This document shows, one piece after another, positions 28,695 to 62,460 of a DNA stretch of 64,000 bases. This stretch comes from Sphyrna mokarran. Taxonomy: Eukaryota. Each line of letters begins with the position of its first letter. The first letter of the stretch is position 1. Position numbers and translations under genes: made by a program. The notes under the pieces are model-generated. The model was not told where the DNA came from and did no database searches. It saw only the letters and a list, made by a program, of their open reading frames with translations. The DNA is taken from NCBI GenBank assembly GCA_024679065.1, contig JAGIQG010000040.1, forward strand, positions 8,990,001 to 9,054,000. Direction: 5' to 3'.

Positions 28695-28740
28695 ATGAGG
28701 TCGGCGATTTCTCTCAGTTTGTTCTTGACTTTCTTATCTG
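28695..28740 (+). CDS. IGHV: IgH leader exon (MRSAISLSLFLTFLS-G)
   Basis: ATG at 28695, hydrophobic signal peptide, phase-1 GTGAGT donor at 28741, 129-nt intron ending TTTTTACAG. Confidence 0.95.
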
Positions 28741-28869
28741 GTGAGTGTCATTTTATTGTCCAAATCTCTCACTGTCACTGTCTCTCTGTTCGTCTATCGC
28801 TGAAATGTTTCAGAAACAGCAATCATTTCATCAGGATTAATTCTCGGGCTTTTTGATCTATTTTTACAG

Positions 28870-29174
28870 GTGTCCAGTCGGAGACTGTGTTGACTCAGCC
28901 AGAGGCAGAGACCGCGCGTCCCGGAGGCTCCCTGAAACTGACCTGTAAAACCAACGGCTTCGATTTTGGCAATATTTGGATGAGCTGGATCCGACAGGTT
29001 CCCGGACAGGGGCTGGAGTGTCTGCTGGAGTACTACACTTCATCCAACAACAACTACGCCCCATCAATTAAGGATCGATTTGCTGCGTCCAAAGACACTT
29101 CAAACAACATCTTCTCTTTGGAGATAACGAGCCTGAGGACCGAAGACACCGCCATCTATTACTGTGCAAGATAC
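28870..29174 (+). CDS. IGHV: Germline IgM-type VH exon
   Basis: [70 protein letters not shown]; open frame with both canonical Cys and the core Trp. Confidence 0.97.
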
Positions 29175-29213
29175 CACAGCGAGAGAAACCAGGGCTAGAC
29201 CCGAACAAGAACA
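29175..29213 (+). promoter_or_regulatory. V 3' RSS (23-bp spacer)
   Basis: CACAGCG-N23-ACAAGAACA. Confidence 0.9.
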
Positions 29214-29559
29214 ACTCGAGAGGGAATTCAGCAACTTCCAACATAACCTGAAGGTAAATATCTGTTTTGAATGTAATATTAACGACAGTGGTTAGAACCA
29301 AACTATAATCTTTTTTTTAAAGTAACGAAGAAAGCATTTAATAGTACAATTTAACAAACTTACCGATGTTAATGGGGTGAGGTTTTCACTGACTTGAGAT
29401 TAATTGTAGTTTCAGCAAGTTCAGCGCTGGATATATTAACCGTTTAAACATTTCTAGTAAATTGTGTTATACGAACAGTTGTCTACATTTTAAATTCGAA
29501 CAAAACTAATGGTCCATTTGAAATGAATATTGAGCGGCAGTACTGAACAGAGTGAGTGC

Positions 29560-29638
29560 AGTTTTTGTCCGGGCCTGTGTCACTGTGATACTATGGGGGC
29601 CACAATGCTTAACAAAGAGGCGTCCTCATACAGAAACC
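29560..29638 (+). other. IGHD: DH1 segment ATACTATGGGGGC (29588-29600) with 12- and 22-spacer RSSs
   Basis: AGTTTTTGT-N12-CACTGTG | D | CACAATG-N22-ACAGAAACC. Confidence 0.93.
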
Positions 29639-29949
29639 TCAGAAAAGGACTTTGCTTAAATTTGTCATCGATGCCACTGCCGAATGCCAAACTAAATGAA
29701 GGTTCAATTAAATAATAAGTAGAAGGACCATTTTTTTAAAGATGCAAAATACTTCAATTTTATTATTATTGATATATGTGCTGAATGTGTACAGAGAGTG
29801 TAAATGTTTCTAACCTCCTTTATCAATACAGTAACCAGTAAGAAAAAAAAAATGAAATACCTCACTGATCTACTCTTAACGAGATAGAAACAGGCAGTGA
29901 AATAGCAGTGAAATTAATTATCTGCATTTTACAGTTAACAGTCTGCCTC

Positions 29950-30017
29950 AGTATTTGTCATGCTGTGTCTCACTGTGATAACTGGATGGCACAGCAGTTA
30001 CTGTCAATACAAAACCT
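29950..30017 (+). other. IGHD: DH2 segment ATAACTGGATGG (29978-29989) with 12/12 RSSs
   Basis: AGTATTTGT-N12-CACTGTG | D | CACAGCA-N12-ACAAAACCT. Confidence 0.92.
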
Positions 30018-30325
30018 CCTTAGCACTAATTGATTGAAGTTGGATCAGTGTCACTTTTAATTACTGTATAGTATTATTTATATCCAGCACTGACCACATG
30101 ACAAGAATGAAAATGAAAAATCGCGATAATTACTCAATTAGCAATAGGTGTTTTCAACATGTTCGTGTATTATTCTTGAAATATAAAACATTAGGGTCAT
30201 ATATGAATGGCAAATGGTGTCCAGAAATCCAATTTCATTTTAGTGAACATTAATTGACTTTGATTTTCCTCTGGTTTGTGAATATTTAAAATAATGGTGA
30301 TTTTCTATCTATTTTTTGCAGAGAC

Positions 30326-59603: not shown

Positions 59604-59845
59604 NNNNNNNNNNNNNNNNNNNNNNNNNNNNNNNNNNNNNNNNNNNNNNNNNNNNNNNNNNNNNNNNNNNNNNNNNNNNNNNNNNNNNNNNNNNNNNNNN
59701 NNNNNNNNNNNNNNNNNNNNNNNNNNNNNNNNNNNNTTATAATGGTGGCAGTTTTGTGCAGTATTGTCAGTGTGTGGATTTTCTAACAGTTGCTTCAATT
59801 TTCACCGGCAATCATTAACTTAATATCATCCAGTCAATACGAATA

Positions 59846-60200
59846 ATAGAACATAGAACATAGAACATTACAGCGCAAAACAGGCCCTTCGGCCTTCGAT
59901 GTTGCGCCGACCAATTCTAAAAAAAAAAGCAATGACCCTCCAAACTAAACCATTCCCTCCTCTTCCATAAACTTATCAACTAACCTCTTAAACGCCACCA
60001 AACTTGGCGCATATACAACTGCCGGTGGCAGGGCATTCCACTCCCGAACCAACCTCTGGGTAAAGAACCTACCTCTGATATCTGTCCTATAACTATCACC
60101 CTTTAATTTAAAGCTATGTCCCCTCGTGCTAGCTTTCTCCATCCTAGGAAAAAGACTATCACTGTCCACCCTATCTAAACCCCTTATATGTTTAAACATC
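59846..60200 (-). mobile_element. CR1 3' end
   Basis: ORF 59945-60199 and (CATAGAA)n tail. Confidence 0.9.
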
Positions 60201-61220
60201 TTATATGTCTAAACATCTTATGTGTTTCAATACGGTTATGGAGCACATTTTCAATGTGTTGGTGTATAAATTTATTTTGTGTTAGTAACAAGATGATATC
60301 AGGAGATAGAATAAAATAATTCATTGATGCATCTCAGAAATCTTATTGACAGAACACTGAAAACCGTGGAGGATTCTATTTAAATTTATTTAAATAGATT
60401 TACTATTTAAATTTGTATTATGGGAAATCAATCCCAGCACATGGAAAAAAAAAGTTGGAACATGTTTAAATTGAGTTGCATAAGTATATATGTATTACAA
60501 TGATGAAGATAATGATATTTAAATACCTGCAGTGAGTAAACTAAAAGCTTATTTGTATTGCTGGATCTTTATAATAGAGAGCCGTTCCCTTCCAAACACG
60601 CTACTTGGGGAGAGGGAAGAAAGTTAGCTCAGTGTTTACCTGTCTCTATCCGGTAATGCAATGTCTCTGATGGTTCTAACCACTGAGGAGATGGAGGTGC
60701 AGTGGATTAACTAATGGCAATCCTCCTCTTTTCATTGAAGAAATTGTGGTACATGGGGGTTAGCTAGTGCTCCTCTCCTCTCTTTGTTGGGTGAGTGGGA
60801 ATCCAGTATGTTAACAATTTCACTCTCCCTTTTTCTGATGGGAGAATTGTTCGTCCATGTTGCTGTGTGACAATCACTTCAGTTCCCATTAGGTGTGGTG
60901 TAGCAGCAGAAAACTGTCATCAATGGATAATGGAAGCAGGGACTCAAGAAATATACATGTTGTGTTTGTCACGAATGTTGAAATTGTCGGATTTTTCAAT
61001 AGCGGGAGTAAATTCAGCGAAGTTACTTTGCCGAATCCTGCATGAATGTGCTCTGATGCAGGGTATATCTGTGCTAGGTGCAATAGTTCAACAAGATTTG
61101 GGCCCGAAACCCTAAAATATCTGACCCAAAACAAAGATATATAATGGAAATAAAACTGAAAGAAAAACAATTAAACAAATGGGTATTTCATTTATCGTTA
61201 ACGGGGAAATGATTTTAGTT

Positions 61221-61226
61221 TTTATT
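61221..61226 (-). terminator. Secretory-form poly(A) signal AATAAA
   Basis: 27 nt downstream of the secretory stop codon. Confidence 0.75.
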
Positions 61227-61253
61227 GAAGTTTTTGATGTAAGTGAGTGATTC

Positions 61254-61645
61254 TCATTGACATGAATTAACGGTGTCCATGAATGCAAGCGAAATGTTCA
61301 CAAAACTGGGTTTACCGCTGGATTTGTCAACTGTTCTGTTGATGATTTTCCAGGGGATGGCTTCATGTCCCACCACACAGGAGTAAGAAGCGCCGCTGGA
61401 CCATTCCTCTGCTGCAATGGATAACAGGCTGTACATGAAGAAGGAGTTATTGCCGTTCTCCGCCATCACCTCGGTGTTCCTGTAGTTCCCGGGATTCACC
61501 GGCTTGTCGTTGACAGTCCACTTGACGAAGATCTCTCGCGAGGAGAAACCTCTCACTAAGCAGCTGAGGGAGACGAATCTCTGAGCGGAGACTTCTTCTG
61601 CCGAGGGCAGGAGGACAGAGACGAACGGTTCACGTGGATTTGGAT
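61254..61645 (-). CDS. IGHM: IgM Cmu4 exon + secretory tailpiece
   Basis: [77 protein letters not shown]. Internal donor G|GTAAA at 61316/61315 for the TM splice; NIS glycan site and penultimate Cys present. Confidence 0.97.
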
Positions 61646-62151
61646 CTGCAGAAAATGTACAATAAATGTCAATAAACTGGAGAATTTATGAGACGATGAA
61701 ACTGCTGGCTGGATATCAGAAAAAAATGTGCTTCACTTTCGATTTTACTTTTCCATCTTTGACGTTCAGCTTGGAGGAGAGGTGAACACAATCGTTTCCT
61801 CAAATTACTCAGGGGGTTGGAGTGGAAAGTTTCAGAAAGCTTACACACAAAATAAGTGTTCGACCCAAAAGATCTGTTCTTTTTATCTTTTAGTTTTCTG
61901 GTTTTTATGCTCCACATCAGGCTCCTGCCTCCTTGTTCAATCTCAAACCAGTAACATCACCTTCAGTTCACTTGTCATTCATTAACTCATCAAATTTTCC
62001 CGTTAAAATATCTAAAGATCCAGAGTCCTTTAGTTCGTAGAATTACCATTCAGAGGAGACCATTAATGCACTGAATACTAAACATTAACAAGTGCACTTA
62101 AACTGGAGAGAGACACTGTGACACATTTATTGTTTCAATCTCGCAGCTCAC

Positions 62152-62460
62152 CTGTTTCCTTGTGGATGGATTTTCTTAAAGGAGTCGGCAGATCCTGATG
62201 GCTCACCACGCACTCAAACACAGCCCCACTCAGCCAGGCTTGTGTCGAGATGTTTAATTTGCTGATCAGGCTGTCAGGATCCGTTCCTGGCTTTTCGGCA
62301 ATCTCTGATTTCAGATACTTCCGATCTCGGATCCAGGACATGTTAACTCCATAAGGAGCATTGGAAATGATGCAGGTTAAAGTCACGGTCGCCTCCAGTA
62401 AGACCTGCTCTATTGGTGGTGCCTGTATCGTCACTGTGGAATCATGGCACTGGGGAGGAT
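62152..62460 (-). CDS. IGHM: IgM Cmu3 exon
   Basis: [64 protein letters not shown], with AG/GTGAG boundaries. Confidence 0.95.

Follow-up and report, generated by a model that had tools for sequence, protein, structure and literature searches.

An intact IgM V-D-D-J facing opposite-strand constant exons in Sphyrna mokarran: two presumed halves of one minicluster, probably separated by a block reversed in the assembly

The window analyzed herein, a 64,000-nt stretch of the Sphyrna mokarran assembly (G000:C994:8990001-9054000, window position 1 being C994:8990001), carries an intact and unrearranged IgM V-D-D-J on the plus strand (28695-30412), a pair of LINE copies, a run of 100 N, and IgM constant exons on the minus strand. 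These features are listed below together with one N-run outside the window; positions are those of the window unless a scaffold coordinate is given.

28695-28740, plus strand: IgM VH leader exon (ATG and GT donor, read directly)
28870-29174, plus strand: VH exon with an open frame, followed by a 23-spacer RSS at 29175 (Pfam V-set, E 2e-17)
29588-29600, plus strand: D1, flanked by a 12-spacer and a 22-spacer RSS (RSS scan and sequence reading)
29978-29989, plus strand: D2, with a 12-spacer RSS on each side, the 3' one weaker (scan; 3' RSS by eye)
30365-30412, plus strand: JH with a 23-spacer RSS, the WGQGT motif and a GT donor (RSS scan and sequence reading)
30413-36684, plus strand: 5' part of the J-Cmu1 intron, ending at site X (36684) (homology to other clusters)
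36685-37917, minus strand: 5'-truncated, RT-encoding LINE, its 3' tail adjoining site X (sequence comparison)
37914-39136, plus strand: second LINE copy, head-to-head with the first and ended by the gap (sequence comparison)
39137-39236 (C994:9029137-236): run of 100 N across which homology breaks; presumed left end of the reversed block
39237-64000, minus strand: first 25 kb of the presumably reversed 111.6-kb block, comprising the 3' end of another IgM cluster and its downstream flank
57627-57756, minus strand: TM1 exon of the adjoining complete cluster, whose V lies at G000:C994:9063725 (sequence match)
61254-61645, minus strand: Cmu4 and secretory tail of the same complete cluster (solved IgM constant chains, E about 1e-44)
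62151-62460, minus strand: Cmu3 of the same complete cluster (sequence match)
G000:C994:9140887-9140927, outside the window: run of 41 N; presumed right end of the reversed block

The leader, V, D1, D2 and J with their RSS and GT donors were all found, in agreement with the complete plus-strand VDDJ claimed in a preliminary description of this DNA. The RSS order of V-23, 12-D1-22, 12-D2-12 and 23-J was 12/23-compatible, and the segments were unjoined and arranged in one orientation; the RSS scan itself gave V-23, 12-D1-22, 12-D2 and 23-J, and the 12-spacer RSS at the 3' side of D2, which has 2+2 mismatches and falls under the scan threshold, was obtained by sequence reading. The V exon retained an open frame and intact splice sites. 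In its framework 2, one unusual Trp-to-Cys change was observed.

No plus-strand match to C1, C2, C3, C4 or TM was detected from the window J to the window end, which bears out the earlier statement that the following 33 kb hold no plus-strand Cmu, nor was any plus-strand constant exon found for a further 174 kb, until the Cmu1 of another cluster at G000:C994:9194897. The minus-strand IgM exons noted earlier (Cmu3, Cmu4 with the secretory tail, and TM1) were likewise present. Within 10 kb past the window end, these exons continued, with no N between, into Cmu2, Cmu1, J, D, D and V, all on the minus strand, so that the Cmu2, Cmu1 and second VDDJ for which a look beyond 64 kb had been advised do exist there. 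Furthermore, the intron of this cluster was unbroken across site X, and two 98%-identical copies of the whole cluster were found at 9.37 and 10.21 Mb. Because the in-window Cmu thus ends a complete minus-strand cluster with its own V, it is not the partner of the window V-D-D-J. The literal form of the first earlier proposal, in which the in-window Cmu3-Cmu4-TM is the own constant region of the V-D-D-J, draws on mere closeness and on the 100-N gap lying between them; it is refuted by the uninterrupted minus-strand cluster, its intact intron and its whole copies, and we regard it as almost certainly wrong. The second VDDJ had also been named as a finding that would speak against mis-orientation; it is present, but mis-orientation is not thereby refuted, the partner Cmu lying elsewhere.

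The genome was searched with V, Cmu4 and Cmu1, and 150 candidates were scored for each, so that the following counts are lower bounds. The V set consisted of at least 33 matches above 130 bits plus one added at 112 bits (34 in all), and at least 33 Cmu1 matches were obtained. Among the matches listed, a same-strand Cmu1 was present for 31 of the 34 V at a distance of 7,453-11,896 nt. The three unpaired ones were the window V, a V at 3832626 on the same scaffold, followed by 32 kb free of J or C matches, and a V on contig C969, the J of which sits 7 kb from the contig end; to have no same-strand Cmu1 within 25 kb, as is the case for the window V, is thus a rare state (3/34 V examined). Two Cmu1 matches among those listed were unpaired, one on C982, which contains a stop, and the other at C994:9136761 on the minus strand. 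On the window scaffold, the unpaired matches listed therefore amounted to the window V and one J-less V, and to only one Cmu1.

This orphan Cmu1, located 110 kb right of the window J, belongs to a constant region (G000:C994:9127299-9140886) comprising a full Cmu1-2-3-4-TM1 with open frames and normal splice sites, upstream of which no V, D or J was found. Neither the V-D-D-J nor the orphan Cmu had any sign of decay. As other partner candidates, C450, C1048 and C994:10.86 Mb were rejected on account of having Cmu4 or Cmu4-TM only, and C982 on account of the stop within its Cmu1 match. A pattern search for the TM2 exon gave no match. Truncated and apparently real IgM pieces were observed elsewhere in the genome.

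The relationship between the two intact regions was assessed at site X. The window J-C intron aligned to an intact neighbour cluster (V at 9183309) up to window position 36684 (= 9191083), and the intron upstream of the orphan aligned to the same neighbour from 9191086 onward; in an alignment with 7 intact clusters, the window row ended and the orphan row started at one conserved site, with an overlap of 1-2 nt. Beyond this site, the window side passes into the LINE 3' tail and the orphan side into the 41 N. With the 145 nt left of the site as the query, 40 genome matches were listed; 20 lay in Ig clusters, and in 19 of these 20 the right half adjoined the match, the exception being the window cluster. 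When the 387 nt right of the site were used, the best 40 of 353 candidates included 23 Ig-cluster matches starting at the site (not counting three with a later start and 14 dispersed repeats), and the left half was present for 22 of the 23 listed (19 from the left-of-site search and 3 from a separate check), the exception being the orphan. The window cluster and the orphan were thus the only unpartnered halves at site X among the genome matches listed.

When the two halves were joined without the LINEs, the distance from V to Cmu1 was 11,335 nt, as compared with 11,286 nt in the neighbour cluster. As assembled, the window V-D-D-J is not followed by its own Cmu1-4 and TM on the same strand, but the spacing fits that of the 31 paired clusters (7.5-11.9 kb) if the block is flipped. 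In addition, the halves were colinear with the neighbour unit over 38.7 of 50.2 kb left of the site and 52.0 of 58.9 kb right of it. Taken together, the base-exact fit, the search counts, the spacing and the colinearity strongly suggest, at the level of sequence, that the window V-D-D-J and the orphan Cmu represent the two halves of one cluster.

Comparison with the neighbour also revealed an uneven pattern of identity. From site X itself onward, the orphan was 99.7-100% identical to the neighbour Cmu over 14 kb, and the exon matches differed at 3 positions in 1,451 nt, Cmu1 and Cmu2 being the same and the differences (3 nt) being confined to Cmu3 and Cmu4; another shared block was 100% identical over 7,416 nt. 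In contrast, the window V-J-intron was only 88-92% identical to the same neighbour, and the outer flanks on both sides diverged similarly from it (97-98% identity). The jump from 88-92% to nearly 100% at site X presupposes either gene conversion or a mixture of haplotypes. The pairing of the halves is the same whether the neighbour is a paralog of the window cluster or its other haplotype.

The near identity over 14 kb and the further 7,416-nt block would also be in line with a true loss, in which a deletion removed the Cmu of the V-D-D-J and the orphan is unrelated to it, being a partial duplicate of the neighbour Cmu or its second haplotype; such a V-D-D-J would be usable only via inter-cluster switching or trans-splicing, and the use of the V of one cluster with the C of another has been described in nurse shark (PMC4279169). 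An unrelated duplicate, however, has no reason to start 1-2 nt from the end of the window intron, and both outer flanks diverge from the neighbour alike, as one duplicated unit, which makes this explanation very improbable. The earlier proposal of a real C-less VDDJ likewise loses its basis, because an exactly complementary Cmu half exists in the genome: a C-less donor would be expected to have no cognate constant region there, and the orphan Cmu is present.

The repeat copies described earlier at 36.7-39.1 kb proved to be two opposite-strand LINE copies (36685-37917 and 37914-39136) of a family that we take to be CR1. The two copies were 92% alike over 624 nt, and an RVT_1 domain of the family RT was found to be encoded by another copy, 94-97% identical. 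None of the other clusters examined had the pair at site X. An origin of the head-to-head arrangement by twin priming of a single LINE was rejected, since the two parts overlap by 624 nt and are only 92% alike. At the right junction, the orphan intron directly adjoined the 41-N run, beyond which there was only an old, 68% diverged LINE; no young LINE copy was found at this junction, so that homologous LINEs do not occupy both breakpoints. Since the far breakpoint has no young copy, LINE-LINE recombination cannot yield the inversion, and the CR1-mediated inversion proposed earlier fails in this form. A real inversion may, with low probability, have arisen by a route other than LINE-LINE recombination.

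Such an event would have inverted about 112 kb of germline DNA, with the cluster broken at the LINE insertion site during or after the insertion, and would have left the intact V-D-D-J opposite an intact but promoterless, reversed Cmu. The base-exact complementarity of the halves is equally expected from this explanation, and the LINE 3' tail lying exactly at the break, the clean orphan side of the 41-N run, the truncated clusters elsewhere, and the region being a mosaic of direct and inverted duplications, are all compatible with it. On the other hand, it requires that both breakpoints coincide with N-runs, of which there are 8 in the 1.06 Mb examined, and the right junction offers no young LINE; furthermore, the far side of that junction looks like uncorrected read error, as detailed below, and neither half has decayed. 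We therefore consider a real inversion unlikely. The flanks of the second junction were mosaics when paralogs were compared. In one paralog, the neighbour-cluster downstream flank is followed, about 28 kb on, by a 1.5-kb, 88% match to what lies past the 41-N run, oriented as a flip would predict; this match carries too little weight to be used as evidence, and it is expected under both leading explanations.

The quality of the junctions was then compared among the N-runs. The run of exactly 100 N reported earlier was confirmed at its position, and the block between it and the 41-N run measured 111.6 kb. Both sides of the window's 910-N and 133-N runs were colinear with paralogs, whereas the 100-N and 41-N runs each joined unrelated sequences. 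The sequence right of the 100-N run began part-way through a flank whose continuation differs in three paralogs. Both flanks of this run were clean. In the 300 nt right of the 41-N run, 31 gap openings were counted against the best paralog, as compared with 0 at 600-900 nt, and the indel events per 200 nt were 14, 14 and 21, then 0-2. In the contigs of four public runs, two parts of this stretch right of the 41-N run were bare, although the repeat to which it belongs was covered very deeply just beyond. The first 600 nt beyond the 41-N run thus appear to resemble uncorrected raw-read error at a weak join.

Indels were also numerous in the neighbour cluster's own sequence, over the 700 nt or so that precede site X and the 500 nt that follow it, a further sign of assembler trouble at this site. 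The contigs of the four public runs were repeat-swamped at the orphan junction, with no loose end listed there; at 92% likeness, the contigs of one run gave no cover at window 36639-36677, left of site X, and the best contig piece at the window junction was 165 nt long with 13 differences and was of another cluster's type. Among the other short runs, the 42-N run at 9296722 likewise joined non-contiguous sequences, and a run of 41 N at 9285965 sat between two tandem arrays.

From these comparisons, the 111.6-kb block was probably reversed in the assembly, which would make the cluster an ordinary IgM minilocus whose intron contains LINEs; most likely, the animal itself has no such C-less V-D-D-J. 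This reading is favoured because the block is bounded on each side by an N-run across which homology breaks, unlike the 910-N and 133-N runs, because the sequence right of the 41-N run is error-like with uncovered parts, because the 42-N run also joins non-contiguous sequences, and because false inversions at N-runs in Ig loci are on record (PMC12090573). Against it stand the public-run contigs, among which none was seen to span either junction, the left flank of the 41-N run, a clean stretch that terminates precisely at the insertion site, as would also follow from a real LINE-associated break, the need to assume conversion or mixed haplotypes, and the real-looking truncated IgM pieces elsewhere in the genome. 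With regard to the first earlier proposal, mis-orientation of the block that follows the 100-N gap explains the data best, in view of the fit at site X and the N-runs at the block ends; its other part does not hold, in that the Cmu made colinear by flipping is the orphan, 110 kb away and outside the window, rather than the in-window Cmu3-Cmu4-TM.

Under this assembly-error reading, the V-D-D-J would be joined to the orphan Cmu in the DNA, and the animal would have, in order, V-D-D-J, an intron stretch of 6.3 kb, the head-to-head LINE pair, a further 3.8 kb of intron, Cmu1-4 and TM, the LINE copies having been partly lost in the 100-N gap. Two features may have broken the assembly here, namely the LINE pair, which could form a hairpin with arms of 624 nt or longer that are 92% alike, and the near-identical 14-kb Cmu copy in the next cluster, which could have led to the wrong join, with two different left sequences entering one shared repeat at site X. 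The rejoined cluster would presumably work like the others, by RAG joining within the cluster and splicing of J to its own Cmu1.

A reversed block would add one more complete IgM cluster, which is of importance for annotation only; the number and orientation of clusters that the assembly gives for this region would be unreliable, and the short N-runs here may mark wrong joins. Should a real and recent 112-kb germline inversion tied to the LINE insertion have split one IgM cluster, which we judge improbable, every transcript with the window V would have to arise by inter-cluster switching; the window V would then naturally mark which route and direction the switch takes, and would allow a mechanism that is still poorly understood to be tested cleanly.

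Shark IgM is encoded in many V-D1-D2-J-C miniclusters that rearrange within the cluster (PMC5192425), isotype switching between clusters is possible (PMC4279169), and nurse shark has pseudogene clusters (PMC2435157). A literature search, mostly outside subscription journals, found no split or C-less shark IgM cluster. The inter-cluster switching of nurse shark would give a C-less V-D-D-J a route to the C of another cluster at distances above 120 kb; such switching is described between complete clusters (PMC4279169), and a dedicated C-less donor is not indicated here. Another parallel is the wolf IGH locus, in which a false large inversion that started at an N-run disappeared on reassembly (PMC12090573). 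The present case is likewise a large inversion starting at an N-run in an IgH region, but is deduced from the split intron homology and error-like flanks, whereas that of the wolf vanished on reassembly. Like the elasmobranch IgM minicluster (PMC5192425), the window cluster has one V, two D and one J in the same orientation with RSS, and the size and spacing of Cmu1-4-TM match once the halves are joined. It differs in that, as assembled, the Cmu half lies 110 kb off and is reversed, and, from the other clusters examined, in that its J-C intron holds two LINE copies at site X. The rejoined unit would be an ordinary member of the elasmobranch IgM miniclusters.

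In the V exon of the window V-D-D-J cluster (28870-29174, plus strand), framework 2 carries a Cys (GLECL, window 29019-29021) at the position where Trp is usual, and the same residue was Trp in three and Leu in one of the four neighbouring V exons compared. At this position, on the VH-VL interface, an unpaired Cys could impair or alter VH-VL pairing. A degenerate V-like remnant was also observed 6.4 kb 5' of the leader exon (window 22201-22500), copies of which, 96-98% identical, precede two neighbouring clusters. The spacer separating the IgM clusters contains a single-exon open frame of the rhodopsin 7TM family, 4 kb left of the window (fetched piece L003:5885-6811).

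A degenerate TCAC/GTGA-rich repeat of ~2 kb was observed in the J-C intron a short way 5' of the orphan Cmu1 (G000:C994:9138200-9140350, within fetched piece L010). The other clusters carry such a repeat at the equivalent place, and contigs from other organisms also match it. Switch regions are described in reviews as absent from shark loci (PMC4279169).

Incomplete IgM pieces were found elsewhere in the S. mokarran assembly (G000), on contigs C994, C1048, C450 and C982:

G000:C994:10858139-10861391, Cmu4(-TM) only; Cmu1-3 absent from the DNA fetched there
C1048:22578-25857, Cmu4(-TM) only; Cmu1-3 absent from the DNA fetched there
C450:565-956, Cmu4(-TM) only; Cmu1-3 absent from the DNA fetched there
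G000:C994:3832626, V without a J or C match in the 32 kb fetched 3' of it
G000:C994:5154920-5168038, cluster with Cmu1-3; no Cmu4 match up to 5182000
C982:13000839, lone Cmu1 match containing a stop

The three Cmu4(-TM)-only fragments are related to one another.

Two more short N-runs (41-42 N) lie on C994 at 9285965-9286005 and 9296722-9296763; the flanks of the latter are non-contiguous in their paralogs, and it is possibly a further wrong join. G000:C994:9096006-9103421 and 9228040-9235455 are inverted relative to each other and 100% identical across 7,416 nt, within arms otherwise 91-99% alike; this identity may reflect recent conversion or assembly copying.

Across G000:C994:8.72-9.47 Mb, the IgM clusters are arranged in mixed order (head-to-head, tail-to-tail and tandem), and their orientations may be unreliable wherever N-runs intervene. 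Their V-to-V distances are 45-180 kb, whereas spacing in the nurse shark is quoted as 120 to over 200 kb (PMC5192425); on that figure, the clusters of this region often lie nearer each other than those of the nurse shark.
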